The notes under the pieces: model-generated
Told to the model about the DNA's origin: nothing
The model's database searches: none
The model's input: only the letters and a program-made list of their open reading frames with translations
Shown here: piece after piece, positions 3,439 through 44,975 of the stretch
Layout of the letters: the number at the start of each line of letters is the position of its first letter
Position numbering within the stretch: position 1 is the stretch's first letter
Position numbers and translations under genes: made by a program
Virus record (IMG/VR): IMGVR_UViG_3300030618_000005
Reading direction: 5' to 3' (one strand)
Length of the DNA stretch: 64,000 nucleotides
From: a virus
Lineage: Duplodnaviria > Heunggongvirae > Uroviricota > Caudoviricetes

Positions 3439-3778
3439 GATGCTCTACGCTCACTGGAGGGATAAAGCGCCGGGTCACTCCCGGCATCCCAGACCGAACC
3501 TCTACCCAGCCCTCAGGCGGGTCTCCGAAGTCTGACTCCCAGAGGTAGTCGGCCCACTGACCAATGGTGGCCTTCATGACCGACTCAGACACGATCTGAT
3601 CCATAGCTTGTCGGTAGACTTGTGCAGGCGTGCCGGGGAACCGGAACGGTAGACGAGGGTCGCCTAACGGAACCCATGTGAAAAGCGTTGGGTGCCATGA
3701 CTGGCCCGGTCGCTCCATCAGCACTTCGCCCTGCTCTGGTTCGTAAGGCGGGACTACAGGGTATCGAATCTCACTCAC
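3431..3778 (-). CDS. hypothetical protein
   Basis: ORF coupled to flanking genes. Confidence 0.4.
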   Translation of the reverse strand: MSEIRYPVVPPYEPEQGEVLMERPGQSWHPTLFTWVPLGDPRLPFRFPGTPAQVYRQAMDQIVSESVMKATIGQWADYLWESDFGDPPEGWVEVRSGMPGVTRRFIPPVSVEHHE

Positions 3779-5285
3779 TATCGGCTCCCTTCGTCAGGTG
3801 GTGCCACGGGTACACATCCAGTTGCCAACACGTCGGACTGTAGCACCTCGGCGCTCCGTGGTTCCCGTCGCAGGTCACCATTGGTGTCCACGGGTCCGAA
3901 GCTACACACGAGGTCAGCTTCTTGCCAGTGCCTATACCACTCGTCGTCGCCCCATTCGTTGAGGCTGGTTTGTCCTTGCATGGTTCCTCGTCTCTGAACT
4001 TCCGGCCCAGCACGTCCATCAGGCTGGCCACGTTCTTAGGTTCGATAAGTTCGCCATCTACGTCGCGCTTGTACCCCAGAGCTTTGTAGCTCAGGTCTAT
4101 CGGATGCTTGGACGCGAACAGATCATTACAGGCTTTGCATCCCTTCCCATCGTTGCAGGTCGGTTTGCGGCTGCCCTTGTAGTTCTTGAATGCCTTGCAT
4201 TCGAGCTGTAGGGCCTCTTCCTGCTCTTGCTTCTTCTTTGCCTTGGCCTCGGCCTTCGCCAGTGCCTCCGATTCGTCCTTGGCCTTCTTAGCGGCTTGCT
4301 TCTCCGCTTTGATGGCGTCCCTCAAAGACTGTTTTCGTTCTTGGATGCGGGACTCGATCTTGCGGACTCGACGAACAAGGTCAAGAGCATCAATAAATCC
4401 ACCAAAGTCATCCACGAAGTTATGCGATTCAAGGTGCCATGTTTCAAATTCGCCGTCGTCTTTACCCAGTCGGATGATCCATCGATCCTCAACCACCTCG
4501 CCGGTCTCTTCTTCATAGGCCGCCTCATAAGCCGCTGTCTGTAGCAAGTACTCCAAGTACAGGTAGTTCGATGTCTTCCAGTCCGCTACCGTCAGCCGGT
4601 CCTTGAACGGATGGGGGCAGCATCGCGGGTTGTCGCACGAGTCCACTTCACACAAACCGTCCAGTGTACCGGCATACTTGTGCTTGCGACTGTAAATCTT
4701 TCGCTCGGTGAATCTCCACCGGACGTTGTGCTTCTGCATCCAGTCGAGCGCGGCCTTGGTTGCGTTCAGCGCCCGCTCATCGAGCTTGGCACGCTTCCAG
4801 CCCATGTGATCCTTCACCGCCTGCGTAAACAATGCGTATGCTTCGGTGTCCATCACCTCGGCAGACTTCAGCTCCTTCTGCCAAATCTTCAGCTTGATGT
4901 ACTGCTCGATCCAGTCATGCGCGGAGTGACCGATAGCACCGGCCTCTTCAAGCTTCTCCTTGTGGGCACCCTTAGCGTCCAAGACCCACTTCTCAAGGTC
5001 CGGCACAGGGATGACGTGGCATGGGGGAAAGCCCACTACTGATCCCGGCACATCCTTCAGGAGCTTTTGGGCCATCATCTTGCAACCCCACGGCACGAGT
5101 GCAGCGGACTTGTCGATGATGTGGCAGACGGTCGTAACACCGTCCTGTGGTTCCAGCTCCCCGGTTTCTGTTTCAAGCAGGTAGACGTGGGCATCCACAT
5201 CGTACCTGATAGTCACCTCGCCATTGTAAAACTTATACTCTTCGGTGATGCCACCAAACTGTTTGATGAATCCTTCTAAAGCCAC
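3771..5285 (-). CDS. PD-(D/E)XK (RecB/Cas4-like) nuclease with Cys-rich C-terminal region
   Basis: VADWKTS..Y..QTAAYEAAY nuclease motifs; internal GRKFRDEE motif. Confidence 0.55.
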   Translation of the reverse strand: MALEGFIKQFGGITEEYKFYNGEVTIRYDVDAHVYLLETETGELEPQDGVTTVCHIIDKSAALVPWGCKMMAQKLLKDVPGSVVGFPPCHVIPVPDLEKWVLDAKGAHKEKLEEAGAIGHSAHDWIEQYIKLKIWQKELKSAEVMDTEAYALFTQAVKDHMGWKRAKLDERALNATKAALDWMQKHNVRWRFTERKIYSRKHKYAGTLDGLCEVDSCDNPRCCPHPFKDRLTVADWKTSNYLYLEYLLQTAAYEAAYEEETGEVVEDRWIIRLGKDDGEFETWHLESHNFVDDFGGFIDALDLVRRVRKIESRIQERKQSLRDAIKAEKQAAKKAKDESEALAKAEAKAKKKQEQEEALQLECKAFKNYKGSRKPTCNDGKGCKACNDLFASKHPIDLSYKALGYKRDVDGELIEPKNVASLMDVLGRKFRDEEPCKDKPASTNGATTSGIGTGKKLTSCVASDPWTPMVTCDGNHGAPRCYSPTCWQLDVYPWHHLTKGADSE

Positions 5286-5309
5286 TCGTCCCTTACGTCA
5301 ACTCACCAG

Positions 5310-5516
5310 TTAGATCAATGCCCGCATGGGCACGTTCTCCTCTGGGTGGCTATGGTTCTGTTGCCAGTCCACAACCGCTTTCGCGCAACTCACTTTTGAG
5401 AAGCCGATGAGACCGTCCTCACCGAAGTAGGTGAAGCCGTCTTGATTCTGCACACATTCTGTTACTATGCCGGTGGTAGGCTTTGACCTTTTCACCGGCC
5501 CTAAGATTGAATCCAT
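5310..5516 (-). CDS. hypothetical protein
   Basis: small ORF in array. Confidence 0.3.
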   Translation of the reverse strand: MDSILGPVKRSKPTTGIVTECVQNQDGFTYFGEDGLIGFSKVSCAKAVVDWQQNHSHPEENVPMRALI

Positions 5517-5518
5517 GA

Positions 5519-5719: not shown

Positions 5720-5720
5720 A

Positions 5721-6965
5721 CTATCTCCTTTTCGTTAGAAGTGCGCCTTGGAACTGAGCCATCGTATCGCCTTCTGGCCGCCCCTTGACAAAAGAGGTCG
5801 CCTGTGCTAGGGAATCCTCCGGGTAAAAGCGTTGGTACAGCTTGATCTTCTGATCGTCGGTCGCTTGACCAAGGTGCAGAAGTACATCGATCCGACCGGG
5901 CCTAATCAACGCCGGGTCCAGATTGTCGAGATGGTTCGTGGTCATGATGTAGATCACGCCGCTAGGGGCATGAAAGCCATCGAGAACATTCAGTAACCCA
6001 GATAGTGTAACACCAAACAGCTTCTCGTGTCCATCACTATCTTCAACTTTGTTCGGGTGGGGTCCGGGTGTTACGCCTTCCTTCCACTCCTGATCCCTTG
6101 GGCCGTCATTAGTGGCCTTGCGTTTCTTGCCAGCACCAGATGCGTCGATGTCCTCGAACATGATGATCGAACCTTCGGGCACAGTGCTTATCGCAGTCTT
6201 CAATCCCTTGTCACTCAGGTCACCAAGGTTCATCAGGTAAATGTCCCGGCTCAGTTGGTACGCTAACCCTGACGCCAAGGATGTCTTGCCGGTCCCCGGA
6301 GGCCCATAGAAGGCGTAGCCACGATGGTAAGGGATACCCAGCTCCCTATAGCGTTCCTTGTCGCCTAGGAACTCGTTTACGTCTTGCAGCAGTTTCTCCT
6401 TCTCCTGCCCGTCGAGCACCACGGACTCAAACGTACGCGGCGAATAGCTCCTCAGCTTTATCCAGTACTCGTCCCACACATACAGCTTGCTCTCACTACG
6501 CTCAGCCTCTTTGTGAATCTCGATGATCTCGGTAACGAACTGCTTGATGCGTTCCTGCCTGCGGCCAATCGTGCTGAAGGAGATTGTCTCACTCCTCTTC
6601 GCGTCCCAGCCGCCCTTCTTATCCTCGCTCCGCGTGTAGTTCAGCCAGAATGGTAGACGCTTGTGCCAGAAGAAGTGCTCCCCCGGCGCGGGCATCAGAG
6701 AGATGAGCTTGCCACGGATGGTCGAGTCAAGATCGACGCGGCGTACACGCGGCATGAATTTCTGCTTGGTGATCCACTCCTTCACCCAAAGAAAGGAAGG
6801 GTCGTCGTCCTTCACTGTTACGCTTACGAGTACTTGTCGTTTGAACCAGAGCCAAATCATCTGCGGCACTGATTTCATGTAGGCCATCACACCACCCATA
6901 ACTAGAAGCATTGCTCCACTGGCGGTAAACTGATTCAACATCTCAGGTGGTAGCCCTATGAGCAT
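5721..6965 (-). CDS. BCS1-like AAA+ ATPase with N-terminal transmembrane segment
   Basis: Walker A GPPGTGKTS, Walker B IIMFEDIDAS, GVTLSGLLNVLDG, PALIRPGRID; N-terminal TM. Confidence 0.75.
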   Translation of the reverse strand: MLIGLPPEMLNQFTASGAMLLVMGGVMAYMKSVPQMIWLWFKRQVLVSVTVKDDDPSFLWVKEWITKQKFMPRVRRVDLDSTIRGKLISLMPAPGEHFFWHKRLPFWLNYTRSEDKKGGWDAKRSETISFSTIGRRQERIKQFVTEIIEIHKEAERSESKLYVWDEYWIKLRSYSPRTFESVVLDGQEKEKLLQDVNEFLGDKERYRELGIPYHRGYAFYGPPGTGKTSLASGLAYQLSRDIYLMNLGDLSDKGLKTAISTVPEGSIIMFEDIDASGAGKKRKATNDGPRDQEWKEGVTPGPHPNKVEDSDGHEKLFGVTLSGLLNVLDGFHAPSGVIYIMTTNHLDNLDPALIRPGRIDVLLHLGQATDDQKIKLYQRFYPEDSLAQATSFVKGRPEGDTMAQFQGALLTKRR

Positions 6966-7882: not shown

Positions 7883-8185
7883 TCATTCGATCACCACCCC
7901 CGTGACGGCGTACTGCTCATAGGACAGCTCTATGTCGAGGTTATGAAGGTACATATCAGAGCACTGGTCACGGCCCTGAAGCACGAGAGGTTGGAACCGA
8001 TGCTCCTTGTCCTTCTCGATCTGGTGCGCCCGCTTGTCCTTACCAAGAAGATACGCTGTACGGGCCAACGATGTTTGCAGACGGGATAGATGATCCCTGC
8101 AAGACTCCTCCGATGGCGTCGACGGCTTCGGTACTGGCAGGCGTGTCTGACTTGACAGTAGAACTAGCAATAGTATTATCTTCAT
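7883..8185 (-). CDS. secreted hypothetical protein
   Basis: Internal ATG with GGAGG RBS; signal peptide MKIILLLVLLSS. Confidence 0.4.
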   Translation of the reverse strand: MKIILLLVLLSSQTRLPVPKPSTPSEESCRDHLSRLQTSLARTAYLLGKDKRAHQIEKDKEHRFQPLVLQGRDQCSDMYLHNLDIELSYEQYAVTGVVIE

Positions 8186-8256
8186 CTCTAAACTTCCTCC
8201 CTTGGGTTTCAATTTGCAGTTTGGCTTGTTATTCAGTGTGTCCGTGCAGAGATTTC

Positions 8257-8568
8257 CTATGCAGTTAGCGTAGTGCCCACCTTGGCCCTGCAAACATGAG
8301 AATCCGGCATACCTAGTCCGCAAGCAGGGCATTCTCTAAGCGGTCGAAGCCCACCCTTGGTCTGATTTTCTGGAAACATGAAGGCGTCTACATCTTCTCC
8401 GCATACTTCGTAGATTTCATCGATCTGCCCCTGTGTATAGTTTTGAAATTCGATGCGGATAGATTCGCCAGCCCCTAGTGCGTCCAGAAGAGCATCATAG
8501 ACAGGTGCATGATTGCAGTCAGTCAGTCCGCACCATTCACATCGAATCCACATCCCCTCACTCATCAC
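8257..8568 (-). CDS. Cys-rich hypothetical protein
   Basis: CEWCGLTDC..C..C pattern. Confidence 0.4.
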   Translation of the reverse strand: MMSEGMWIRCEWCGLTDCNHAPVYDALLDALGAGESIRIEFQNYTQGQIDEIYEVCGEDVDAFMFPENQTKGGLRPLRECPACGLGMPDSHVCRAKVGTTLTA

Positions 8569-9121
8569 GGAACCTCCTGCCTACATGCTCGGGTTTTACT
8601 ACCACAACCTTATGCTTCGCTTGGGCCTCACGCATCTGTAATAACACAGCTTCTTTCTCAGCCAGCTTCGCATTCTGTCTTCGCTTCTTTTCTAACTTCA
8701 GCTTCTCCTGATTCTTTTCGTAGATATTCAGGGAGTCCCTGAGCTTGTTGCGCTTGTTCTGCAACTCGGTCATCTCTACGCTCAGTGCATCCATTTTCTC
8801 ATTCGCAGTCTTCAGGTTGCGCTCAGTCATAAAGAGCGCGTTCATCAGGTGCGAGTCTTCCATCTCGGAGAGTAGTACCTTCTTACCCTCCTTGGTCGTC
8901 CAGTATAGCGCACCCACAGACATCATCGATGGTAGCGGGCCACCCGTGTACGGGTCCACTTTCGGGGGCATGTACTTCGCTACCGACGCCTTCGCCTCAG
9001 CAACAGTGCCGGTTCCCACCACGAGGTAGCCGTCCTCATCGTAGACGTTGATTCCCCCGAATGAGTCCTTCTTCATTGTGAACTTGCTAGGCGTACCGGG
9101 TACGCCGGGGAGAACGCCCAT
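8558..9121 (-). CDS. coiled-coil protein ending in GRRFRDE
   Basis: K/E-rich heptads; shared C-terminal motif. Confidence 0.5.
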   Translation of the reverse strand: MGVLPGVPGTPSKFTMKKDSFGGINVYDEDGYLVVGTGTVAEAKASVAKYMPPKVDPYTGGPLPSMMSVGALYWTTKEGKKVLLSEMEDSHLMNALFMTERNLKTANEKMDALSVEMTELQNKRNKLRDSLNIYEKNQEKLKLEKKRRQNAKLAEKEAVLLQMREAQAKHKVVVVKPEHVGRRFRDE

Positions 9122-12096: not shown

Positions 12097-12777
12097 TTAC
12101 GAGGTTACCGTTGCCCTCATGCGCCGGTAGATCGTTGTGGCTCCCCCCAAGAGTCCAGTGCCTAAGAGCAGCAGGCTGCTGGGTTCAGGGGTAGGTGCCA
12201 GCGGTGTCGTTGGTCCAGTACCGTTCGAGGTGAACTGGAGGAAGTCTTGCGCTGTGCCGCCCTCGCTCTGCGTACCGGGTACGGCGGTGTACAAGGTGAA
12301 CTGCTGGAGGAACGCCTGCGTCACGTCGCCGCTCAGAGCCAGCGTTTCGTCTTGGAAGAGCAGCGGGTCATCTGCGTTGAAGTTCCAGCCCAGTGTCTCG
12401 GCGCTGTTCACGTCCGTCAAGGCCCAGATATCGAGCTGCGCCGTGGTGTCAGAGATAACTCCGGTCTGCGCCTGATAGAGCAGGAGGGCACTGGTTACGT
12501 CGTCCCCATTCGGCGGGTGGGCTGCGCTGAGATTCTGCGGAGTTGCCTGCCATGACTCACCCACGTAGATTTCGCGGTCGGCATCGAGGCAGAAGGCGGA
12601 GATGTCGCTCTTGTTGGAGTCGTACAGGCTATAAGGCCCGACGTAGACTGCGCCGGTTGGGTTGACAACATTGCCGGGGCTTACGAGGGAGAGGGTGTCG
12701 GCGTGCGCGGTCAGTGACAAGGCCGCGAGGATAAGTGCGGCTACCACTGGGATGTACTGCTTGAAGGTGATTCGCAT
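12097..12777 (-). CDS. secreted PEP-CTERM sorting-domain protein
   Basis: N-terminal signal peptide; C-terminal PEPSSLLLLGTGLLGGATTIYRRMRA (exosortase target). Confidence 0.65.
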   Translation of the reverse strand: MRITFKQYIPVVAALILAALSLTAHADTLSLVSPGNVVNPTGAVYVGPYSLYDSNKSDISAFCLDADREIYVGESWQATPQNLSAAHPPNGDDVTSALLLYQAQTGVISDTTAQLDIWALTDVNSAETLGWNFNADDPLLFQDETLALSGDVTQAFLQQFTLYTAVPGTQSEGGTAQDFLQFTSNGTGPTTPLAPTPEPSSLLLLGTGLLGGATTIYRRMRATVTS

Positions 12778-12871: not shown

Positions 12872-13816
12872 CTATGCCGCGACTGGTTCCTCCTCGTCGC
12901 GGAACTTGCGGCCAGTGGACTGGTACACGAGGCCATCCAGCGCCTCACCAATGGACTCCACACCCTTCAACAGGTCGGCCTTGAACTTGTCGCTGCTCTT
13001 CAACGTCTTCGCACTCTGCCCCTCGATCAGGCCGCGAAGCTTGGCAACCTGCTCCTCCAGCTCGGTATCGCTGGTGATGTTGCGCATGTCGAAGGTTGAG
13101 ATGAACTCCTGAATGTTCTGGATGGCTGACTCGCGGAGGATGGGCATCTTGCCTTCGCCGTCCGGGGTAAGCTTCGACTTGAGGTGCATGACAGCTTCGA
13201 GAAGGTTCTCGCGCATCATGATCGTGATCTCTTCACCCACGGCCTGAATCTGCTTTTGTGCCTTGGCCGCCTCAGCTTCGAACAACTCAGGGTTGATGTC
13301 CTTCAGGTTCAGAGGCACGCCGAAGGTCAGGTAGTCCCACTCGAAGGTGAAGTAGCTGGAGACCAGATCAACCGGGGGATACTCGGAGGCCACGGCCAGA
13401 CTGCCCAGCGACTCTTTGGACGCCTCGACGAGGCCGGGGTACGCGGCGACGAACTTGGCCACGAGGTCTTTACGCTCTGCCGCGTGCTCTGTGAGACGCT
13501 GCTGAACCTCAGGGACCACACCCACGGGCACCATGAGGATGCCGATGTCCTTGTACGGCAGGGCCGTGTTGTTCAGCCACTTGCGCAGAATGCTGTCGTG
13601 CTTGCGAATCTTCTCAAGCTCGTCCGATTCGAGGAGGGTCTTCGATACCTTCAGCAGGGATACGTCGGCGTCAGTGCTGAGGACCGATGCACCGGCCACG
13701 TTGCGGGTGTTGCCCAGACGACCGTACTTGACTTTGAGGAGAACAGTCTTGGACACGATCTCGGTGAGGTCTTTGGAGGAGTGGTTGACTTTCTCTGTGT
13801 CGATTGCGAATGCCAT
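12872..13816 (-). CDS. hypothetical protein ending in GRKFRDEEEPVAA
   Basis: 314 aa; shared C-terminal motif. Confidence 0.5.
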   Translation of the reverse strand: MAFAIDTEKVNHSSKDLTEIVSKTVLLKVKYGRLGNTRNVAGASVLSTDADVSLLKVSKTLLESDELEKIRKHDSILRKWLNNTALPYKDIGILMVPVGVVPEVQQRLTEHAAERKDLVAKFVAAYPGLVEASKESLGSLAVASEYPPVDLVSSYFTFEWDYLTFGVPLNLKDINPELFEAEAAKAQKQIQAVGEEITIMMRENLLEAVMHLKSKLTPDGEGKMPILRESAIQNIQEFISTFDMRNITSDTELEEQVAKLRGLIEGQSAKTLKSSDKFKADLLKGVESIGEALDGLVYQSTGRKFRDEEEPVAA

Positions 13817-13891: not shown

Positions 13892-14107
13892 TTATTTCAG
13901 GGTTTCTTTGATACTGATCTGGACATCTCCGTCGTCTACCCAGACCACGAGCAGCTTACTGCCGATTACATACATCCTGAGGTACTGTTTCCTGAGCCTC
14001 CAGTGCCAGTAGGCGGCCCTGATGCCTATATTGCCGTACCAGAGGGCCAGAATTACCCAGCAGAGGCAGGAAGAGGCGAATACGGGGTCACTAAACGAAT
14101 GTGTCAT
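13892..14107 (-). CDS. small membrane protein
   Basis: hydrophobic LCWVILALW. Confidence 0.25.
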   Translation of the reverse strand: MTHSFSDPVFASSCLCWVILALWYGNIGIRAAYWHWRLRKQYLRMYVIGSKLLVVWVDDGDVQISIKETLK

Positions 14108-14423
14108 TGAGGAACCTCACTTCCTCGTCGATAGCGTCCTGTCGATCTTCATAGGTGCCGGGGAGAATGGGACCACCGATGGGTGCAAGGTTGATGCGCC
14201 AGTCGCATGGCCACATCCGAGTGAACTCCGCTAGACTGGACTGACGGGAGCAGACCGAACGAAGACCGTGAAACATCACGCGCAAGAGAGGGTTAGCCGG
14301 TTCTACGTGCGATGCACGCTTCACTACCGTCTCCGGTGTGATGAAGGGCTTACTGTGCTCATCGACGAGAAACTTGATCTCGCCGTCTTCGTCTACTGTG
14401 ATGGTCACGGTCTTGTCGGTCAT
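14091..14423 (-). CDS. DUF2997-like small protein (paralog)
   Basis: Internal start MTDKTVTITVDEDGEIKFLVDEH resembles 14794..14976; upstream N-terminal extension is frame junk. Confidence 0.4.
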   Translation of the reverse strand: MTDKTVTITVDEDGEIKFLVDEHSKPFITPETVVKRASHVEPANPLLRVMFHGLRSVCSRQSSLAEFTRMWPCDWRINLAPIGGPILPGTYEDRQDAIDEEVRFLNDTFV

Positions 14424-14424
14424 C

Positions 14425-14742
14425 TTATTTGCCCGCCTTCTTCGTCCGCGACTTCGAGCGACGGTGCTGCTTCGCGGGCTTCTGGTTGGGCTTGCCGGGG
14501 TGCTTCTCGTGCCACAGCTTGCGGACAAGGGCCTCGACGGTTGCACGGTCAGCGGGGTCAAGCTCCATCGCACGCGGGTGATTGATTTCCTCCGCGATGG
14601 AGGCAAGGATGGCGGCCTGAAGCCGGGGCTTCTTGGCGGCGTTCTGAAGCTTCTTGACTTGGTTCGGATCAACCACCTGATCGATGGTTAGCTTGGGCAG
14701 GTATCCGATACGGCGGAGACGACGGGCGAGTGATACTGGCAT
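14425..14742 (-). CDS. basic hypothetical protein
   Basis: K/R-rich tail; start/stop overlap with next gene. Confidence 0.4.
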   Translation of the reverse strand: MPVSLARRLRRIGYLPKLTIDQVVDPNQVKKLQNAAKKPRLQAAILASIAEEINHPRAMELDPADRATVEALVRKLWHEKHPGKPNQKPAKQHRRSKSRTKKAGK

Positions 14743-14793: not shown

Positions 14794-14976
14794 TTACTTA
14801 GCGCACACTGTTGTGGTTGTCGTCGTCCGGTACTCAGGCTTTTTCTGCCGGTGAGTGACCTTAGAACCTTTGGTGAGGGTGTCCATCACTGCTGCACATC
14901 CTACACCCTTGAAGCCGTCGAGTTCAACACTAATCTCGCCGTTCTCATCGATTTCAATCGTGGCAAACTTTGCCAT
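14794..14976 (-). CDS. DUF2997-like protein
   Basis: MAKFATIEIDENGEISVELDGFKGVGC motif, recalled from memory of the family. Confidence 0.45.
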   Translation of the reverse strand: MAKFATIEIDENGEISVELDGFKGVGCAAVMDTLTKGSKVTHRQKKPEYRTTTTTTVCAK

Positions 14977-14988: not shown

Positions 14989-15444
14989 TTAGGCGATTGC
15001 GTACTTGTACTGGGTGACTTTCTTGCCGTTGCGCTCGACCTGCTTATTCACCACAAGCTTGTAGCCAGCTTTCTTGGCGTTGGCGAAGACGAACTGCTTC
15101 GAGTACTCCTGCTTCACACTCTTGAGCCAGCCTGCGTTGTGCCGGGTAGAGTCGAAGTCGGAGATGATGGCAGAGTAGGTGCCGTCCGCATTACGGGTGA
15201 ACCCGATGTCGTTTGACGAAGAGCCTACCTGCTTGCGGCGGATGATGATGTCGGCCTTCATCGCTTTGGCGGGGTTGGTGGTATGGCCTACGCCATCCAG
15301 TGTGCGGTAGTCCCCTTGGTAGCCGACGAGGGGCTGAGGATTGCCGATGTGGTCTTCCACCTCGGTGTACCCCATCTCGAACAACGCGGCCAGCAATACC
15401 TTGCCATCGTTGAAAGTTGTTGCGGCTGTTGCGTACTCACTCAT
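14989..15444 (-). CDS. DUF1257-like protein
   Basis: N-terminus and size fit DUF1257 (from memory); adjacent to DUF2997-like gene as in cellular pairs. Confidence 0.45.
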   Translation of the reverse strand: MSEYATAATTFNDGKVLLAALFEMGYTEVEDHIGNPQPLVGYQGDYRTLDGVGHTTNPAKAMKADIIIRRKQVGSSSNDIGFTRNADGTYSAIISDFDSTRHNAGWLKSVKQEYSKQFVFANAKKAGYKLVVNKQVERNGKKVTQYKYAIA

Positions 15445-16013: not shown

Positions 16014-16220
16014 TTAGAGATTCAGGCTGGTGATGGTTGAGTCGATGGCCTTTTGCTCACGGTTCTTACGCCACGAGTTGAAACGTTGAAGGAACTCTGG
16101 GCCGCCACTAATAGCGTACCACAAGTAAAAGAACGTTATTATGGGACCGACAACGAAGTAGAAGAGACCCCAGCCTATCGCCACGTGCATGAGGTCTCGT
16201 AGTGTGATGGCGTGGCCCAT
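16014..16220 (-). CDS. small membrane protein
   Basis: two hydrophobic helices. Confidence 0.35.
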   Translation of the reverse strand: MGHAITLRDLMHVAIGWGLFYFVVGPIITFFYLWYAISGGPEFLQRFNSWRKNREQKAIDSTITSLNL

Positions 16221-17797
16221 TAGTCCCTGATCTTTCTACCTGAACCCGCGAAGACGGGGCCGGTGATGTCGCTGTTATCCTTACGCGTGGTCTCATCGTG
16301 GTAGTAGGTGCCCACCTTGGATGCACTCAGATAGCGTCCAGATGCCTCTAGGCGCGTCTTCTCAAGTGTGGCGGCGTCAGAGATGGCTGACGGTACGATG
16401 TACGTTGCAGCCTTCGCCAGTGTCCAGTTGAGCATGTCTGCCTTCTTGCAGCAGTCACGAATCTCAGCGCCCGTCCAGTTCTCGCTCGGTGGGTTCGGTT
16501 CGTCGTTGACGAGTCCGTGGTTGCGGCGTTGGATGGCCCAGATTTCATCGCGCTCTGACGCATTCGGAGAGTCAAAGAAGAACTTGACGAGAGAGAAGCG
16601 GCGGCGAAGCTCAGGCGGTAGGTTGGCGATGCCGTTGCAGGTAGCGATGCAGAGCACGTTGCCACTGCTGATGGCGTCGATGGTCTTGGTCGCGGTGCGC
16701 AGGTTGTGGCCAGAGTTACCGACGTGCATGTCTTGCATGGCGGCGATGTCGAAGACGATGACGGGCTTGTTGTAGGTGGCTCCCAGACTCTTGGCCAGTT
16801 GCGACTTGGACACGCCGGGGATGCCGATGCTCAGCGCACCATTGACGCCCTTGTCTTCCATCCACGAGAGGATGATACCGTTCATTTCCGTCTTGGTGCC
16901 CGACGAGTCCGTACCGTTACCGGCCATCTGCTTCTCGATCTCGTCGATGAAGAGGATGACTTCAGGCGCGTTCTTGCCGGTCATGACGGCCCGGTAGAAC
17001 TCTTTGGCACTCTCGATGCCTCCGATGTCATCCAGCGTCTCCTTGCCCTTGTAGACGGTCAGGCCGGGGGTAGCGTTGATGATCTGGCGCTTGCGCTCCC
17101 AGAGGTCGGTGATGCTGAGGGTGCCTTTACGGATGGACTCCTTCTCCTTGCCCGGTATCTTCTCAGTGGTCAGGCACATCGCGGTCGCCTGATCTGCACT
17201 GAAGGACGAGAGACCGATGAGCGCGTCGACTGCCGACTTCTCGATGTCGGTGGTCAGAGATGCCTCGGCGTTCGCGCTCTTGAACGTATTGCGTACGATC
17301 ACCGCAAGCTCTTCACGTGTGGGCAGTGGTTCATCAAGCACAAGCACGTCCGTCTGAAGCTCGATGGGCAGAGTCGCGCCGGGTGTGCTGACGAGCACGA
17401 GCATGTTACCCACGTTCTTGTAGATGTCTCGCAGGTTCCACACGGCCTGTACGTTGGTGGGGTCACCCCAGAGCAGATGCGCGTTAGAGATAAACACGAT
17501 CATGTCGCTGACGCCATCCGTCTCCAGAGCCTTCAGTGTCTCAGGCAACTGTACCGTCTCAGGTGTCTCAAGTCCGGCCTTCGCCATGAGTGTGGCGTAT
17601 GCTTCCTTGCTGGCCTTGGTGTTGTTCATTGGCAGGAGACCGTGGACAGAATCCCAGATGAGCATAGGCGTGCTATCGAGGGTGCCGTTCAGTGCTGCAC
17701 TGATATTGCGGGTGAGTCCCTTGGCATCGAACGTACGCATGTTGATGATGGGAGTGGAGACGCGGCGGGCGGCCTTGAACTGTTGGATGAAATCCAT
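16220..17797 (-). CDS. AAA+ ATPase-like protein with rearranged, degenerate motifs; ends GRKIRD
   Basis: ILFIDEIEK..MEDKG (Walker B region), GIPGVSKSQLAKSLG (degenerate Walker A), IATCN, LPPELRRRF. Confidence 0.5.
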   Translation of the reverse strand: MDFIQQFKAARRVSTPIINMRTFDAKGLTRNISAALNGTLDSTPMLIWDSVHGLLPMNNTKASKEAYATLMAKAGLETPETVQLPETLKALETDGVSDMIVFISNAHLLWGDPTNVQAVWNLRDIYKNVGNMLVLVSTPGATLPIELQTDVLVLDEPLPTREELAVIVRNTFKSANAEASLTTDIEKSAVDALIGLSSFSADQATAMCLTTEKIPGKEKESIRKGTLSITDLWERKRQIINATPGLTVYKGKETLDDIGGIESAKEFYRAVMTGKNAPEVILFIDEIEKQMAGNGTDSSGTKTEMNGIILSWMEDKGVNGALSIGIPGVSKSQLAKSLGATYNKPVIVFDIAAMQDMHVGNSGHNLRTATKTIDAISSGNVLCIATCNGIANLPPELRRRFSLVKFFFDSPNASERDEIWAIQRRNHGLVNDEPNPPSENWTGAEIRDCCKKADMLNWTLAKAATYIVPSAISDAATLEKTRLEASGRYLSASKVGTYYHDETTRKDNSDITGPVFAGSGRKIRD

Positions 17798-29247: not shown

Positions 29248-30496
29248 GGAACTTCCTACCTTCCCCGCTCGGCGCGGCGGCTACGAGGTGCTGGTGATAT
29301 GTACAGAAGCGTACCACATCCTCCCCGGTCGCGTCAAACTCTTCGAGCTGGGCGACGGCTATAGGAGTAGTGACATCGAGCTTTGTGTCAGGACACTGGT
29401 CGCAGAAGAAGGTGTACGTGGTACGCTTCGACGGAGAGTACGCGATCTTGCCCCTGAATGTCACATGCATGTTACCCATCGCGCCTAGCTTCATGATGAA
29501 CCGTTGACCGGCCTGCGATCCAAAATCCCCGCGATCCTTGACGTACTTGGCTGCCTCAGGCTTTAGAGCTTTGAGCTGCGCAGCAGAGGGGCCATCTCCC
29601 CAATCAGCGTCCTCTATACCCTCAAAGTTAGGTGGCACGAGTATATACTTAGGTTCCAAGGGCATGACCGACTTGCCCTGTAACGACTGGACAGCCTGCT
29701 TGATGCCCGCGACCGTCAGCACAGTACCGTCGTTCTTAGTGATCGTTCCGGTGTTCTGGATGACGCCACCATACTTCTTTATGTACTCCAGCTTTTGTTT
29801 CTCTTCGCTGGCCAGCTTCTCCTTCTCCTGCGTAGCCTGAAAGGACTTGAGCTTCATCCAGTACTGCTCGACTAGGTACTTGGCGTTGGGAGCGTTCTCT
29901 GCTATCGCCTTGTCCATCTCCTTCTTGTCTTTGTCGAGTTGGTCCGCGAGGAGTTTGCTGGTATTGACGTTGAGAGGGGAGCTGTACTTGCTCTGAATGC
30001 CGTTGTCGAACCCGGCTATGCTACTTGTGTCCACCAGTGTAGACAAACTGTTGTCAACGATGCCCGCGCCTATCGCAGACAGTGCTGCACTGCCACCTAG
30101 CAGACCACTGTAGGCACCACTGAGCTGTTGGGCCAAGCTCGTCTGCTGCTGAAGTACTTGAAACGCGCTGTCGGGTAATTTGGGCGCATTCATTATCGCT
30201 AGATGCTTCTCCCAGTTGTTCACGATCTGCATGACGATCTCAGCAATGGTATTCACAACCTGTTCGGGATGGCTAAGTGCGAGGTCGTAATTGTTGATCG
30301 TCGCGTGACCGATAACCAACGGATTGGTTGGGTCAGAGATATTGGCCTTCGTTACACGGATCGTTGTCGTCGGCTCTGCGACGTTGGGCGTGATCGTGTA
30401 TTCGTATCCGTTCTTCGGCAATAAAAGACCGGCCAGTTTATCAGACTGGTCGGCCCATTTTTTCACGAAGGTGTAGTCAGCAAGAGCCTGTGCCAC
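29234..30496 (-). CDS. hypothetical protein ending in GRKFREAD
   Basis: 420 aa; shared C-terminal motif. Confidence 0.5.
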   Translation of the reverse strand: MAQALADYTFVKKWADQSDKLAGLLLPKNGYEYTITPNVAEPTTTIRVTKANISDPTNPLVIGHATINNYDLALSHPEQVVNTIAEIVMQIVNNWEKHLAIMNAPKLPDSAFQVLQQQTSLAQQLSGAYSGLLGGSAALSAIGAGIVDNSLSTLVDTSSIAGFDNGIQSKYSSPLNVNTSKLLADQLDKDKKEMDKAIAENAPNAKYLVEQYWMKLKSFQATQEKEKLASEEKQKLEYIKKYGGVIQNTGTITKNDGTVLTVAGIKQAVQSLQGKSVMPLEPKYILVPPNFEGIEDADWGDGPSAAQLKALKPEAAKYVKDRGDFGSQAGQRFIMKLGAMGNMHVTFRGKIAYSPSKRTTYTFFCDQCPDTKLDVTTPIAVAQLEEFDATGEDVVRFCTYHQHLVAAAPSGEGRKFREAD

Positions 30497-33564: not shown

Positions 33565-33965
33565 GCCAGTGACAACCCCAATCACCCGCCGACCGACCCC
33601 ATGAAAATCCATTCGTCAGCCTTCCCACGTAAATGTTTAGACTGGGGGATCGCTCCCCCTTCTGTTGCTAGGCCCGTCAAGAGGCCCCAGCGGTTATTAG
33701 GCCGCAAGTAGCTGTGCTGCAACAACGCTCTTGCGAACGCTGAAACGGACACGGCTGTGGCTGACACTTTCGGTGACAGTTCTTTTTTTCCAGCAGTCAA
33801 GGTCGCTAGGCACCTGCACAGTCCACTCTTCTATCTGTATCCGTCGAAGCCGTGACATCCCCGTATGCGGTACGCTTACGAGATTGTTTTGGTGGAGATG
33901 GCGAGAGTCGAACTCGCGTCCGTCTACCGACTTTGGAGCTTCATACCATGCGTAACTTTTTGAAT
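33565..33965 (-). ncRNA. ssrA: circularly permuted (two-piece) tmRNA-like gene
   Basis: See first finding: E. coli-like 3-prime T-arm/acceptor with encoded CCA, GGGGAUG 5-prime end with G3:U70, tag frame ..AAQLLAA-UAA-UAA. Confidence 0.6.
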
Positions 33966-34438: not shown

Positions 34439-37135
34439 TCATTTTTTCCAACACTCCGCGATGTTCGAATCGAACTCCATGACCACTGCTGTCATCTTCA
34501 CCGCTGCGGCCCGCTTGAATGCGTCACCGATCAGCTTTGCTACCTCAGTGGCTTTGTGCTTAGGACATTGTACCACAAGCTCGTCATGCACCATCTTGAT
34601 GAGACGCGCACGGAAGGTGGGAAGAGTATGCCACAGGTACGGCACTCCGTCCTTGTCGAACCCACAACCGCCCGCCAGCTTGATGATCGTGGCGTTCGTA
34701 CCCTGAATGGCGTGGTTCTTTCCTTGGCGCTCGATAGAGCCTGACATCGCGCCCATTGCCTTACCGATCTCTTTCTGAGTCGGCTGGTTGTGCTCGATGA
34801 ACCACAGCTCTTCTTTGTCCGGCTTGCGGTTGTTGTTCTTGACGAAGAGGTCGTACTTCAATTGTGCCTCTTCAGGTGACAATCTCAGCTTCTCTTCGTT
34901 GTCAACCTTCGCCTTCTCCTTCGCACGATCCCACGTGGGGTCTGGGAAGAGACGACGCCGACCGTACATATCGAACGAGCGTTTCTTCATGTAGGCATTC
35001 TTGCCAGACTGCTCAAGGTATGCCCAGATGCGCGGGAACTTCTTGGAGTGCAGCTCCATCAGCTCAGCGGCCTTCTCGACCGTCTTGCCGATTGATTGCG
35101 CGAGTTTGCTTGGGCCGCCGCCGTACGCCAGCAGGAAGTTCGTGCTCTTGTTTTCGTTCCTCAGCTCAGCGTGTCCTTTGCATTTGCACTTCTGCCGCGC
35201 CGGTTCGCCGTTCTCTTTTTTCGCATAGTACTTGCAGCCGGGTTCAGTAAGGACTACCCAGCCCTGCTCGTGCAGAATCTCAGTGCCTACAGAGTGAACG
35301 TCCTCGCCGCGACCGAAAGCACCGATCCACACCGGGTCTTGTGCCAGCTCCGCGATGATACGAAGCTCCGCGCCGGACATATCGGCGGTGATGATTACAT
35401 ACTCTTCTGCGTGGGTGTTACAAAGCTCTCCGCAGGCGGAGCACCTAAATCCGGGCACAGAGAAGTCCGCAACATAGATGCCCTCACGAGGAGGCGCGTC
35501 AGCATTGCAGCAATCAGAAACACGTATGGACTCGTTAGGAGGATCAGCAATAAAACAGGAGCGAACTGCTTCGTCCTGCGGTAGGTTCTGGCCATTAGGT
35601 TTCTCCGATGAGGAACGCCCAGTCTCAGCATCGTACTGGTTGTAGACGCAATGCAGACGCCCGTCGCCGGGGTGCAACCACCCTTCCTCTTTGCATGGCT
35701 TGCCCGTCCACTCTGTAGCCCACTGGTATCCGTACGTCCCGATCTCCTTGGAAAGAGTGTGAAGCTTACGGATTGAACCGCAGATAGCGAAACCCTTGGC
35801 CTCATACTTCGCCAGTGTGTCATCGTCGCACTTCTTCATCGACTTGAGGCCCTTGATCTCTTGTAGGGCCGCTAATAGCTGGGAATCGCTACTGTAGTTG
35901 ATGAGTGCTGCGCCTTCGCACTTGGCGGCGAGGTTTTTGATCTTCGTCCGCTTCTTTTTCATGTCGCTGTGCTCGGTCTTCAGCGTCTCCTTCAAGTCCT
36001 TACGCTGTTGCTCAAGCAGAGCCTTTTGCATTTCGAGGTGCGCCATCGCCGCAGTGTCGCCCGCCTTCTTGTAGACCGCGATCTGTTTCTTCAGCTCCAG
36101 CTCAGCCGGGGAGACGACGTTGAACGCCTTCCACTGCGCTTCCTTCGCATCGATCTCAGCATCAGTATTTATGTCGTACTTGCTGCCGACGAGAGGGATG
36201 AAGTACGGGTCGAGCGAGTCGCTATAGAGCGCGGTCAGCTCGGCTATCTTGCCGTCGATACGCTTGCGCCACTTCTCCTTGTCCATGCGCTCACCGTGGA
36301 TGTGCATGTCCTCGAACATGCCGATGGCGTCATTCTCGATCTGGACAATCTCGTTGAGATTGTCGCCCATGACGATAGGCTCGTTGCTGGAGTTCTTAGG
36401 CTCAAGGTTCTCCATGAACTTGGCCATCGGGCTGCCCTTCTCTTTGAGAGTCTTCAGGCGAATGCCGGACGCGACGACCTTCTGGGCCATCATGATGTTC
36501 AGTGGGAACCGCGTATCGAGTGCGGCGTATTTGATCTGACCCGGCTCAAGCACTGCGTCGAGAGTGAACGATTCCTGATACTGTTTGTCCACAGTCTTTC
36601 GGAAGTAACGCTCCATCATCTCGTTCATGGAGTAGTAGCCGTAGTCCTTCATCGAGTGCGCCCCGGCCCAGATGCACTTCTCCGCCATCGAGCAATCGTA
36701 GTAGTTGTACGTGCGCAGGCCGAAGTTCCAGTAGAAGGTCATGTACTCGAAGCCGAGATTCACGCCGACCTTCAGGAAGTTTCGAGAGCACAACACAGGC
36801 TCCAATATGAGCATCAACTCTTTGAGCTTTGGAGGAAGGTTCGCGCCGTACTGACCTTGGCATGAGAAGAGTAGGTTCGGATCGTTGTCGCAGAAGGGCA
36901 AGAGGTCGATCACGTACTGCTCGACGTTGTTACCAAACTGGACAGTACGGCAGCGCCGGAAGAAGTAGTCCTTCAACGGGGTCGTTTCAACGTCCCATCC
37001 GAGTACACCTTTGTCGTTCGCTTGGACACGCGCAAAGAAATCCTGAAGAGAAGCAAGCTCTTCGAGGCTCTGGATGAAAGTAACTTTGAGTGGGGGCGTG
37101 AGTGTTTCTATGTCAATCGGGGTGATTGGCTGCAA
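34439..37135 (-). CDS. family A DNA polymerase with 3-5 exonuclease domain and Cys-rich insertion
   Basis: Exo VLGWDVETT; YNQ..TGRSSS..PNGQNLP; DMSGAELRIIA; NKSTNFLLAYGGG; HDELVVQ. Confidence 0.9.
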   Translation of the reverse strand: MQPITPIDIETLTPPLKVTFIQSLEELASLQDFFARVQANDKGVLGWDVETTPLKDYFFRRCRTVQFGNNVEQYVIDLLPFCDNDPNLLFSCQGQYGANLPPKLKELMLILEPVLCSRNFLKVGVNLGFEYMTFYWNFGLRTYNYYDCSMAEKCIWAGAHSMKDYGYYSMNEMMERYFRKTVDKQYQESFTLDAVLEPGQIKYAALDTRFPLNIMMAQKVVASGIRLKTLKEKGSPMAKFMENLEPKNSSNEPIVMGDNLNEIVQIENDAIGMFEDMHIHGERMDKEKWRKRIDGKIAELTALYSDSLDPYFIPLVGSKYDINTDAEIDAKEAQWKAFNVVSPAELELKKQIAVYKKAGDTAAMAHLEMQKALLEQQRKDLKETLKTEHSDMKKKRTKIKNLAAKCEGAALINYSSDSQLLAALQEIKGLKSMKKCDDDTLAKYEAKGFAICGSIRKLHTLSKEIGTYGYQWATEWTGKPCKEEGWLHPGDGRLHCVYNQYDAETGRSSSEKPNGQNLPQDEAVRSCFIADPPNESIRVSDCCNADAPPREGIYVADFSVPGFRCSACGELCNTHAEEYVIITADMSGAELRIIAELAQDPVWIGAFGRGEDVHSVGTEILHEQGWVVLTEPGCKYYAKKENGEPARQKCKCKGHAELRNENKSTNFLLAYGGGPSKLAQSIGKTVEKAAELMELHSKKFPRIWAYLEQSGKNAYMKKRSFDMYGRRRLFPDPTWDRAKEKAKVDNEEKLRLSPEEAQLKYDLFVKNNNRKPDKEELWFIEHNQPTQKEIGKAMGAMSGSIERQGKNHAIQGTNATIIKLAGGCGFDKDGVPYLWHTLPTFRARLIKMVHDELVVQCPKHKATEVAKLIGDAFKRAAAVKMTAVVMEFDSNIAECWKK

Positions 37136-38953: not shown

Positions 38954-39077
38954 TTGCGGGTAGCTCAGCGGTAGAGCATTCGGCTGTGCGAGATGTGGAA
39001 CGCCACGCTCCAGTGCAACTCTGGAATCTCGAAAAGTAACCGAACGGTCGCTGGTTCGATCCCAGCCCCGTGAGCCA
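38954..39077 (+). tRNA. atypical tRNA-like gene with 49-nt structured insertion in anticodon arm
   Basis: Canonical acceptor, D-arm, T-arm and encoded CCA; anticodon stem TTCGG/CCGAA encloses a 56-nt three-way junction. Confidence 0.45.
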
Positions 39078-41516: not shown

Positions 41517-41521
41517 TTCAA

Positions 41522-42361: not shown

Positions 42362-42363
42362 CG

Positions 42364-42702: not shown

Positions 42703-42911
42703 TGACAGATCACGAAGAGAAACCTATGCACAACGTCTCGTTGCATCGAGCGTTGTCCCATCTGAACAAGGGCGGCCTGCACCGCGCTCTTGGCGTTCCA
42801 GAGGGCAAGACAATTCCGCACGACAAGTTGGAGAGCGCGAAGAACAGCGACAATCCACATACTCGTAAGATGGCACAATTCGCGGAAACAATGAACGGGT
42901 GGCATCACTAA
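42702..42911 (+). CDS. hypothetical protein
   Basis: Internal duplication LHRAL..GLHRAL. Confidence 0.4.
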   Translation: MTDHEEKPMHNVSLHRALSHLNKGGLHRALGVPEGKTIPHDKLESAKNSDNPHTRKMAQFAETMNGWHH

Positions 42912-42938
42912 TCTGATCCTCCCCATGATTGGAGGATC

Positions 42939-44975
42939 ATGAAGCTTCAGAAACTACGAGACCTAATCGCCTCGTGTAAGACGAACCCGAACTATCAGTT
43001 CCGTGAAACAAGTAACGAAGATATCCTCGCGTTGGCCAAGAAGAGCTTTTCGAAGCTCACTGACGGTCAGCGCGAGAAGGTTTATGCGTCATGGAAACGT
43101 GCGCTAGACATGAACAAGGAGGCGCTGGACGACTCAACCGGTGAGCTATTGCTCATCGCTCGATTCATGGCCCAGACCAACCTGTTCTTCATGTGTCACC
43201 TGTTGGAAACCTACAACAAGGTCACCGTGAATACCCACGAAGAAATTTGCAACAAGTTTTTCGTGCAGAAGAACCCGACTTTCGTAACAGTAGAGAAGTT
43301 TGCCAACCAGTATACTGACCTCAAGGATCGAATGTTGCTAGTCCCACGAGGCGGGTTCAAATCTTCTATCGACATTGCAGACGTGGTTCAGTGGGTGAGT
43401 TGCTACCCCGCGATTACCATTCTGATCCTGACGGGTGTGTTCGACCTCGCCAGTGACTTCCTCGGAGAAGTCAAGAACCACTTCACTCTCATAGAGTCGC
43501 AGAAGCTCGACACCAAGACCGGCAAGCCGGTACTCGTGCCCAAGCTCTTCTTCGACGAAGAGACAGAGGAATGGTCTGAAAGCATGTTCCAAACGTTGTT
43601 CCCTGAGCACTGTGTTCCTCCAGCCTCAGGCACTCAGTTCGAGTATCACTCCCCAGCGCAGGGCGATCAGAAAGAGCCAACCGTGAAGGCCGCGTCCATC
43701 GGACAAGCCCTCGTCGGTAAGCACTTTGACGTGATGAAGCTGGACGACGTTATCACGAACGAGAACAGTCAAACCGTTGACCGTTTGAAGAAAATCGCTA
43801 AGCAGATCAGTATTGATCGAGCCATGCTTCACCCTTACGGATTCATGGACGTAATCGGCACGTGGTACGACGAGAAGGACTACTACGGCGAGAAGATCAA
43901 GCAGCAGGAAACGTTCATCAAGGAAGAGGGTCTGTCGAACCTCATCACTGGCAGCGTTGACTCCGGGCGACTGAACATCGAGTACAAGACCAAGACCTAC
44001 CTTCGAGCCGCAATGTGGCTCACCGATCAAGCGATCAAGGAAGGCAAGACCGACGTAGACGCCAAAGGTCCAGACTATGAACTCTGGTTCCCTGAGCGTC
44101 TGCCTTTTAGCTTTTTGTATGATGAGAGAAAGACGGACCCGGAAGGGTTCGCCATCAAGTACCTCAACAACCCGAGAAAGATCAACCGTATCAAGTTCGA
44201 GCGTGCCCTTCTGATGAAGCGCACTATCCCGCACAACATGCTGCCGCCGCAAGGCGTCGTCGTGACGACAGTAGACACAGCGTATTCAACAAAGTCATGG
44301 GCCGATTACACCGTTATCCTGACCACGCTGATATATGGCGGGCGTTTCTACATCCTCAACATGGTGCGCGGACGATTCAACGAGATCGAGCTGCCTGCGG
44401 TTATCGCCAACACAGCGTACAAATGGAAGCCTAAGCGAATCGCCATCGAAGACTCGGTGGGCGTGAAGTGGATGGGACGCGAACTCCGTCGAGAGATGGA
44501 CAAGCTGCAAATCAGCATTCCGATTGAGTACTGCTCTCTGGGCCTCGGCAAGAAGTCTAACTCGAAACAGATGAAAGCCAAGCCGGTACTCCGACTGCTT
44601 GGCGACGAGCGTATGTTCTTCCTCAACTCCTGCGAAGGGTTGAACGAACTCTACAACGAACTCGAAGCCTTCACGGGCACCAGCGACGACACACACGACG
44701 ACATTATCTCCGCACTATCCCTATTGGTTGAGCAGTTCATCTCTTATGCCGATGTGGGATCGAAAGTGGACATGGTGAACTCGCAGTATGTTGCAGATCA
44801 ACAGAACCACGAACGTCATCAACTCGTACACGGTATTGGCAAGTATGCTCACATGAACATAAAGGCCCAGCTCGTGAATGATGACAACCCGGTGACTGCG
44901 TTCCAGATCGACAACAGCCGTATGTTCCGCGATGAGCCAATGGGCACTGACCCGTTTGCCGATCTATTCAACTAA
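42939..44975 (+). CDS. terL: terminase large subunit
   Basis: N-terminal ATPase block LLVPRGGFKSS; RNaseH-like nuclease block VVTTVDTAYST..HDDIISALSL; RMFRDEP near C-terminus. Confidence 0.85.
   Translation: MKLQKLRDLIASCKTNPNYQFRETSNEDILALAKKSFSKLTDGQREKVYASWKRALDMNKEALDDSTGELLLIARFMAQTNLFFMCHLLETYNKVTVNTHEEICNKFFVQKNPTFVTVEKFANQYTDLKDRMLLVPRGGFKSSIDIADVVQWVSCYPAITILILTGVFDLASDFLGEVKNHFTLIESQKLDTKTGKPVLVPKLFFDEETEEWSESMFQTLFPEHCVPPASGTQFEYHSPAQGDQKEPTVKAASIGQALVGKHFDVMKLDDVITNENSQTVDRLKKIAKQISIDRAMLHPYGFMDVIGTWYDEKDYYGEKIKQQETFIKEEGLSNLITGSVDSGRLNIEYKTKTYLRAAMWLTDQAIKEGKTDVDAKGPDYELWFPERLPFSFLYDERKTDPEGFAIKYLNNPRKINRIKFERALLMKRTIPHNMLPPQGVVVTTVDTAYSTKSWADYTVILTTLIYGGRFYILNMVRGRFNEIELPAVIANTAYKWKPKRIAIEDSVGVKWMGRELRREMDKLQISIPIEYCSLGLGKKSNSKQMKAKPVLRLLGDERMFFLNSCEGLNELYNELEAFTGTSDDTHDDIISALSLLVEQFISYADVGSKVDMVNSQYVADQQNHERHQLVHGIGKYAHMNIKAQLVNDDNPVTAFQIDNSRMFRDEPMGTDPFADLFN

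Follow-up and report, generated by a model that had tools for sequence, protein, structure and literature searches.

Seven otherwise unrelated proteins encoded on a 64,000-nucleotide stretch of DNA from a tailed virus (Caudoviricetes; IMG/VR record IMGVR_UViG_3300030618_000005), hereafter the window, share a short peptide of the form G-R-[KR]-[FI]-R-[DE] in their C-terminal tails or linkers. We propose, with a probability of roughly 0.55, that this peptide serves as a short linear docking motif, through which the proteins bearing it are held to a single receptor that accompanies a gene cassette. In nearly all of their homologues, the AAA ATPase and the DUF3150-like protein of this cassette carry the tail. 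It would be a hub-docking motif with, so far, only a candidate hub. We found neither the motif nor a function for the cassette described in Pfam, PHROGs, NCBIfam, PADLOC or the literature that could be searched, which agrees with a preliminary description of the window that had recognized no known family.

Recurrence of the motif in the window

The seven open reading frames (ORFs) and tails listed in the preliminary description were all confirmed by translation, six on the minus strand and that of the terminase large subunit (TerL) on the plus strand, and comparison of the seven proteins revealed no similarity apart from the 6–10 motif residues. On the minus strand, GRKFRDE (3987-4007) lies in the linker between the core and the Cys-rich C-terminal module of an exonuclease (gene 3771-5285), 71 amino acids (aa) upstream of the protein end. 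GRRFRDE (8561-8581) ends a 187-aa protein (8558-9121) and overlaps the Shine-Dalgarno sequence (SD) and ATG (8565) of the next gene. GRKFRDE (12893-12913), within the tail GRKFRDEEEPVAA and followed by a final EEPVAA, belongs to a DUF3150-like protein (12872-13816), and GRKIRD (16223-16240) forms the extreme C-terminus of an AAA ATPase (16220-17797). HRRFRDE (28996-29016) ends a small orphan protein (28993-29247), and GRKFRE, followed by AD (29243-29260), is the tail of a 420-aa protein (29234-30496) encoded downstream of a metallophosphatase-like gene. The plus-strand copy, SRMFRDE (44916-44936), falls within TerL (42939-44975), in its variable C-terminal linker and 12 aa before the end. The common pattern can be read by setting side by side the tail peptides GSGRKIRD, QSTGRKFRDEEEP and NSRMFRDEPMG and the ancestral-type PDRKIDLDDDE described below. 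The distance from motif to C-terminus varied from 0 to 26 aa, with 71 aa in the exonuclease.

A six-frame scan with the core R[KRM]-hydrophobic-R[DE] returned, on the gene strands, the seven sites inside genes and one that is off frame, together with two looser matches in short non-genic plus-strand frames (29432-29446 and 36774-36788); it revealed no additional strong member in the window. The motif exceeded the frequency expected from composition and was enriched at C-termini, the two properties that the preliminary description had singled out for checking. The strict form GR[KR][FI]R[DE] was observed five times compared to 0.0045 expected (20,000 residue shuffles of about 20,000 ORF residues, none of which reached five), and four of these copies fell within the last 15 aa compared to 0.00045 expected. 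This is an enrichment of about 1000-fold, concentrated at C-termini. The looser core R[KRM][FI]R[DE] was observed seven times compared to 0.083. The regular expressions were fixed after the window had been seen, and the independent support therefore comes from conservation in orthologues.

Codons varied among the copies, the flanking DNA was unrelated between copies and all six arginine codons were in use among 41 distinct copies from the window and its close relatives. Selection thus acts on the peptide, as had been argued from the differing codons. An artefact at the DNA level, whether from a DNA repeat or from in-frame reading of the ribosome-binding sites of genes downstream, is extremely improbable and is refuted for the set as a whole. 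It would accommodate the off-frame site, which is exactly an SD plus ATG, the overlap of 8561-8581 with the next SD and ATG, and a moderate enrichment of AGR codons at the first Arg (21 of 41 copies compared to 28% genome-wide). However, an SD-like pentamer occurred inside 10 of the 41 copies and was absent from the other 31, some copies lie inside the protein or as much as 26 aa ahead of the stop codon, and the peptide is conserved across orthologues that are only 36–58% identical. Overlap with ribosome-binding sites is a small bias that cannot account for the motif.

The off-frame look-alike itself (8181-8201, minus strand; GGGAGGAAGTTTAGAGATGAA) reads GRKFRDE in a closed, untranslated frame and comprises the SD and ATG (8185) of gene 7883-8185, the product of which begins with the signal peptide MKIILLLVLLSS. 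The start listed for this ORF at 8332 is probably wrong, the signal-peptide protein starting at 8185. A frameshift reading of this copy was ruled out by in-frame stops. A strict match in a noncoding frame is improbable by chance, and the SD and ATG explain it only partly.

Conservation on the ATPase and the DUF3150-like protein

A scan of IMG/VR with single proteins returned no close relatives of the window, but an alignment-based scan did, and the comparisons below draw on 80 IMG/VR and 80 genomic loci recovered with an alignment of the ATPase, in which gene calls are greedy ORF picks and the related sequences are not phylogenetically independent. Viral and genomic relatives each number more than 400. 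Two of the seven proteins are core carriers of the tail. The first (16220-17797, minus strand) is a double-ring (D1–D2) classical AAA ATPase (Pfam AAA) that resembles Cdc48, p97 and Rix7 and has no N-domain. Its AlphaFold2 model (predicted local distance difference test, pLDDT, of 90) contains two AAA domains with p97/Cdc48/Rix7/NVL as best Foldseek matches (E about 1e-11), and the tail, residues 504-525, is disordered (pLDDT <50). More than 1000 homologues were found. An R-x-hydrophobic-[RK] peptide was present in the last 14 residues of 105 of the 120 best homologues compared to 117 of 2852 (4%) other ORFs of the related loci, and the linker preceding it varied in both length and sequence.

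The second core carrier (12872-13816, minus strand) is a mostly helical protein. It is assigned as DUF3150-like on weak matches of its homologues in loci L003 and L005 to PF11348 and on a plasmid homologue annotated as DUF3150. GRKF[RL] was kept in 12 of 12 homologues of this protein, and across the wider family an R-x-hydrophobic tail was found in 111 of 117 loci. The AlphaFold2 model was weak (pLDDT 64) and helical with a disordered tail (residues 299-314), and its Foldseek matches were uninformative. Searches of PDB sequences with the ATPase, the DUF3150-like protein, the 29234-30496 product and the exonuclease were empty, PADLOC and NCBIfam gave just weak generic AAA matches such as IetA/IteA, and none of the cassette proteins received a function from PHROGs.

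The peptide has the properties of a short linear motif. It consists of 6–7 residues around a near-invariant Arg, it lies in disordered tails behind variable linkers, it is conserved above its flanks and it has been gained independently in unrelated proteins. The earlier proposal of a docking motif for one common partner is upheld in these respects. That the motif works by binding, that its receptor is single and that this receptor is encoded by the cassette, we infer.

An older tail on a widespread gene cassette

The ATPase and DUF3150-like genes are linked with two further genes whose products carry no tail, encoding a DUF1257 (Ycf35-like) protein (14989-15444, minus strand; PF06868, E=5.6e-12) that adjoins the ATPase in phages and plasmids, and its neighbour in both, a small DUF2997 protein (14794-14976, minus strand; PF11211, E=1.4e-6). 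A conserved cassette protein of about 110 aa that begins MTDKTVTITVDEDGEIKFLV (14091-14423, minus strand) was assigned to no family. An iron–sulfur label for 14091-14672 proved wrong, as 14091-14423 differs from the Fer4_12/radical-SAM-like protein found at that position in loci L003-L005. The DUF3150 family profile matched in 135 of 171 ATPase loci; the loci without a match mostly have short flanks.

Nearly every homologue of the ATPase and of the DUF3150-like protein ended in a tail of the form R-x-hydrophobic-[R/x]-[hydrophobic/acidic]-acidic, which in distant members of both families becomes R-[KRA]-hydrophobic-x-hydrophobic-acidic. Distant ATPases carry GRKIEVE, ARAIQLEE or SRAISLED and distant DUF3150 proteins PDRKIDLDDDE, PTRAISFEDE or SRKFRFDEA, with GRKIEVE paired with PDRKIDLDDDE and SRAISLED with PTRAISFEDE. 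The window motif is the lineage-specific form of a much older and wider tail, which the preliminary description had missed. That tail belonged originally to the ATPase and its partner, an unstudied pair of genes present in numerous viruses, plasmids and chromosomes.

The cassette occurred in phages, plasmids and chromosomal islands from at least five phyla. Plasmid tails included QRRLRGG and KRKIRILPE in Ca. Manganitrophus and terminal GRQIDF and ARKLDI in Paenarthrobacter. The ATPase gene was present in chromosomes or metagenome-assembled genomes (MAGs) of Acidobacteriota, Nitrospirota (including the complete Nitrospira moscoviensis), Armatimonadota and others. In the sample examined, both tails were read in MAGs of Nitrospirales, Armatimonadota, Acidobacteriota and Syntrophomonadaceae, and in N. 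moscoviensis the DUF3150 tail alone was read. Three cyanobacterial plasmids encode the AAA, DUF1257 and DUF2997 proteins and no DUF3150, and their ATPase ends PLQLDIRQ, without an R-x-hydrophobic tail. Literature searches on DUF3150, DUF1257 and DUF2997 returned nothing beyond a note on cyanobacterial gene clusters.

Several further observations concern these loci. Among them are plasmids and chromosomes (L171-L176, L134 and L145) with the AAA-DUF1257-DUF2997 module. On plasmids, the module lies amid neighbours of the kind found in defence islands (zeta toxin, RloB, PIN, WYL and Fic). It adjoins a probable class II ribonucleotide reductase in Nitrospirota chromosomes, is also near a DnaN paralogue in a Nitrospirales MAG (L134), and adjoins GrpE and an Hsp70 on one Pseudanabaena plasmid. 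A Bryobacter-type locus contains a 56-aa ORF (L110, 8074-8244, plus strand) that duplicates the ATPase tail (ending PRGRVIRDLGEPFTVMPPSTAEV), and the ATPases of this clade have a longer tail with a second conserved element, GPLTVMPPS.

Spread to further proteins in one phage lineage

The window belongs to a virus of a soil bacterium, a relative of Tunturiibacter phage Tunturi_3 (PP885686). Tunturi_3 is a 97.6-kb podovirus infecting an acidobacterium and the sole cultured member of a barely studied group of Acidobacteriota phages. TerL and portal (44984-47113) genes shared 68% DNA identity between the two, and 38 of the 114 ORFs called in the window had Tunturi_3 homologues. The exact motif is absent from Tunturi_3, but degenerate versions were found at equivalent positions of its orthologues: the ATPase gp103 ends GRIIR, the DUF3150-like gp96 ends DRKFHLEGEEF, TerL contains QRHFRVD, the exonuclease gp77 ends VLRRKDVTG, and gp131, the positional analogue of 29234-30496, ends VRKIRLDNE. 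The paper on the Tunturi viruses makes no mention of C-terminal motifs. Tunturi_2 and Tunturi_4, which infect the same host genus and have no cassette, possess no such tails.

In the clade nearest the window, five to seven unrelated proteins per 20-kb locus carried the tail (seven in L003, six each in L004 and L011, five in L012). The C-terminal domain of 29234-30496 had homologues in L003, L004, L011 (two), L012, L014 and L015, every one ending GR[KLR][FI]R, with eight tailed relatives in this family. The 8558-9121 product had one tailed relative, the L006 homologue, which ends GGRKFKEA, and the small protein 28993-29247 had no homologue among the loci examined. Conservation in the orthologues of related phages, for which the preliminary description had asked, was thereby found for these two families as well as for the ATPase, the DUF3150-like protein and, in part, TerL.

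The exonuclease, which was assigned by PHROG, differs in this respect, as RKFRD was present in 0 of 150 representative orthologues (P0253-P0402); its motif is thus a lineage-specific gain. Tunturi_3 gp77 ends at the equivalent point, and the Cys-rich module is encoded separately as gp76. The idea of a recent fusion of the exonuclease with a gp76-like Cys-rich gene was softened, since a module like the last 70 residues of the window protein was found in 24 of the same 150 orthologues; such modules are common in the family and the motif is simply inter-domain. Gain inside disordered linkers, seen for TerL and the exonuclease in this sub-lineage only, is typical of short linear motifs.

Several of the carriers act on DNA, and a basic-aromatic tail could in principle bind nucleic acid directly as a generic DNA or RNA tether for DNA-handling proteins, Arg/Lys and Phe being plausible contacts. 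We regard this as very improbable, because acidic residues always follow the motif, older forms have a second hydrophobic residue, conservation is strict with an invariant Arg in a fixed register, and many of the small proteins that carry the motif have no DNA-related domain.

Two separate tails on TerL

Within TerL, R-x-[FY]-[RQ] was found in 29 of 120 homologues (P0133-P0252), in the variable stretch that links NPVTAFQxE to the terminus. A separate tail, DPFADLFN (44949-44972, plus strand), forms the extreme C-terminus and lies outside the motif network. This DP[LF]xDL[MF] tail was present in 120 of the 120 homologues, with DP[LF] within the last 16 aa.

TerL C-termini bind portals in model phages, and portal or prohead docking had been the leading hypothesis for the motif in the preliminary description. 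We now give hardly any credence to a portal-docking or capsid-targeting signal, and portal docking is rejected as what the motif does in general. The TerL copy is indeed near a C-terminus of the class that binds portals, and the cargo-loading peptides of encapsulins are formally analogous, since there too a shared short C-terminal peptide addresses unrelated proteins to one destination. Encapsulin peptides, however, target an HK97-fold shell, whereas here the ATPase and the DUF3150-like protein, which have no part in packaging, carry the tail on plasmids and chromosomal islands without portal or capsid genes. In TerL itself the motif is found in the minority of homologues given above and the DP[LF]xDL tail is invariant, and in the phage of locus L004, where six proteins are tailed, the TerL attributed to it by a contig of equal length (P0146; 92,012 bases) has no motif. 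The DP[LF]xDL[MF] tail is the better portal-docking candidate, and the separation of the two tails matters for models of terminase–portal docking.

A proposed receptor travelling with the cassette

A single receptor most probably binds the tails of both the ATPase and the DUF3150-like protein, and this would assemble the cassette proteins in one complex. In the Tunturi_3-like lineage, further proteins would have gained the tail and been recruited to this complex, namely the exonuclease, TerL, the protein encoded beside the metallophosphatase-like gene and several small early proteins. Candidate receptors are the body of the DUF3150-type protein, the DUF1257/DUF2997 pair and the AAA ring. That the receptor travels with the cassette is suggested by three lines of evidence. 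The two constant carriers of the tail belong to the cassette in at least five phyla and on three kinds of replicon, the cassette-less Tunturi_2 and Tunturi_4 have no such tails, and no recognized host-hub ligand resembles the motif, the clamp motif being unmatched and clamp genes rare. Among the candidates, the absence of the ATPase tail together with that of DUF3150 hints at the DUF3150-type protein as receptor, a pattern seen in the three cyanobacterial plasmids only.

More tentatively, and in our estimate doubtful as a whole, the tail might be the address code of an unrecognized mobile-element machine (the Cdc48-like ATPase with DUF3150, DUF1257 and DUF2997) that, in one phage lineage, became a hub recruiting proteins from across the proteome as a nuclease, the terminase and early proteins evolved the same tail. 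If true, DNA processing and packaging would be tied physically to an ATPase that remodels proteins. For eukaryotic viruses, networks of short linear motifs have been mapped well, and bacterial ones are known for just a few hubs, the clamp and SSB (single-stranded DNA-binding protein) among them; to our knowledge they have hardly been described within phage proteomes. The motif offers a clean, testable example, with a 7-residue peptide linking five to seven proteins per genome, and a first functional handle on the widespread cassette of AAA ATPase, DUF1257, DUF2997 and DUF3150. The peptide could serve as an immediate bait, through which the receptor, and hence the role of the cassette, might come out.

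Several points weigh against a cassette-borne receptor for a docking tail. Some motif copies overlap ribosome-binding sites, and the AlphaFold2 monomers of the ATPase and the DUF3150-like protein show neither tail docked on its own body. A hub protein bearing the same tail as its clients would be unusual. The phyletic comparison that bears on the receptor is thin, consisting of the three cyanobacterial plasmids and of ATPase loci lacking DUF3150 that mostly have short flanks. Finally, about 16 of the 150 exonuclease orthologues, from other lineages, end in a different conserved tail of similar character, F-x-[IL]-P-[ME]-[DE] (e.g., RKPFAIPMEG and KPFVIPEE), and this tail could point to a more general hub, possibly of the host.

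Docking onto a universally conserved host hub (the beta clamp, SSB, the ClpX N-domain or RNA polymerase) instead of a cassette receptor is accordingly the alternative to which these hydrophobic-acidic exonuclease tails speak, as do the presence of DNA enzymes among the carriers (exonuclease, TerL) and a DnaN-type clamp encoded near the cassette in some relatives; we nevertheless consider it unlikely. Bacterial beta-clamp binding motifs follow Q-phi-x-[LM]-[FL] or Q-phi-x-[LM]-x-[FL] (PMC11139829). The clamp network resembles the present one in that a short, disordered and often C-terminal peptide on unrelated proteins, gained and lost by lineage, fits one hub pocket. Its consensus, however, is unmatched by tails such as G-R-K-F-R-D-E or R-K-I-D-L-D-D, which have no Gln and no terminal hydrophobic pair and in which one or two hydrophobic residues, and then acidic ones, come after an invariant Arg. 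A clamp gene was found in just 8 of 165 loci, and tblastn with the clamps of relatives found none in the window or in the complete Tunturi_3 genome, so that the clamp, which had been put forward earlier as a possible replisome hub, is not sustained as the partner. With carriers in at least five phyla only a very conserved hub would fit, none is known with such a ligand, and the cassette-less phages of the same host genus are without the tail.

A likeness to SspB also bears on a host hub. The XB tail of SspB, which ends in LRVVK-COOH, tethers SspB to the N-domain of ClpX, and some ATPase tails (GRVVRFDEE) recall it, both being basic-hydrophobic C-terminal peptides after a flexible linker. Only some of the ATPase tails read GRVVR or GRVLR, however. 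In these, Gly stands where SspB has its key Leu, acidic residues follow and the peptide stops short of the extreme C-terminus.

A degron or unfoldase-recognition tag, engaged by the phage Cdc48-like ATPase or by a host AAA+ protease to time the removal or remodelling of its carriers, is distinctly improbable. Unfoldases typically recognize disordered terminal tags, the ATPase has the fold of a substrate-threading unfoldase, many carriers are small early-region proteins, and another classical AAA ATPase (5721-6965) is encoded in the window. Against this, the ATPase itself is tagged in nearly all lineages, TerL and the DUF3150-like protein, including its plasmid and chromosomal copies, would be marked for removal, and the variable distance of the motif from the C-terminus is atypical of terminal degrons. 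The tails end in acidic residues and show no likeness to ssrA-type degrons with their non-polar LAA end; the permuted tmRNA of the phage encodes an ordinary tag of that type.

A docking tail on cassette proteins also has partial counterparts in other systems. In T7, the C-terminal tails of the gp4 helicase and the gp2.5 SSB both bind the gp5 polymerase/thioredoxin, which provides a precedent for similar flexible C-terminal tails on at least two phage proteins docking one phage partner, docking being a proposal in the present case. Apart from a final aromatic residue, the tails of T7 are wholly acidic, and they centre on the polymerase; the SSB/T7 class of tail is an acidic run that needs no basic residue and closes with a hydrophobic or aromatic one. 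The present motif, by contrast, requires Arg and a hydrophobic residue, ends in acidic or variable residues, need not be terminal and centres on the AAA ATPase/DUF3150 cassette. A tail of the T7 type does occur elsewhere in the window: the protein encoded by 2142-3044 (minus strand) has an acidic tail with a terminal Phe (ending DAEYVEEANGDITF, with EEANGDITF as its last residues) resembling those of SSB and T7 gp2.5, and its Tunturi_3 orthologue, annotated as a Cas4-domain exonuclease, ends DAEYVDTEITL.

Docking tails are also known from Cdc48/p97-type and proteasomal ATPases, as the HbYX motif and as the DDLYG end of p97, which binds PUB/PUL domains. These are likewise double-ring or classical AAA unfoldases with a conserved terminal peptide on a disordered C-terminal tail. 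HbYX, however, occupies the last three residues as hydrophobic-Tyr-X, and client proteins do not share it, whereas the tails of the present ATPases (GRKIRD, GRVVRFDEE, GRRLRAAGE) have no penultimate Tyr, and the motif is found at variable distances and on proteins other than ATPases.

Other features of the window

The second AAA ATPase (5721-6965, minus strand) is a single-ring classical protein with an FtsH/PAN/Cdc48-like AAA domain (phrog_7485); it has neither the tail motif nor a Tunturi_3 homologue. A permuted two-piece tmRNA gene was identified at 33697-33952 (minus strand; Rfam RF04321, 71 bits compared to a gathering score of 47), and its tag frame ends AAQLLAA. ARAGORN proposed a different tag for this gene, which the Rfam alignment does not support. 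Five or six tRNA genes were present, for Met, Ile, Ala, Pro and Leu together with a match at 38954-39074 found by Rfam only.

The product of 8257-8568 (minus strand) contains a 28-residue stretch 93% identical to the end of Tunturi_2 gp67 (L086, 49679-49762); this match to an otherwise unrelated Tunturiibacter phage suggests a recent exchange and a shared host range. A 226-aa protein (12097-12777, minus strand) has a terminal PEP-CTERM sorting signal (Pfam) composed of PEP, a hydrophobic stretch and RRMR, which would imply that this phage protein uses the host exosortase pathway. Finally, three tail-fibre-like genes on the plus strand (55993-57384, 57393-57884 and 62788-63600) encode a near-identical C-terminal module (TTATAGSxTLPxNPxGF followed by INGTxxKIPYYA), which is a homologous domain and not a short motif.

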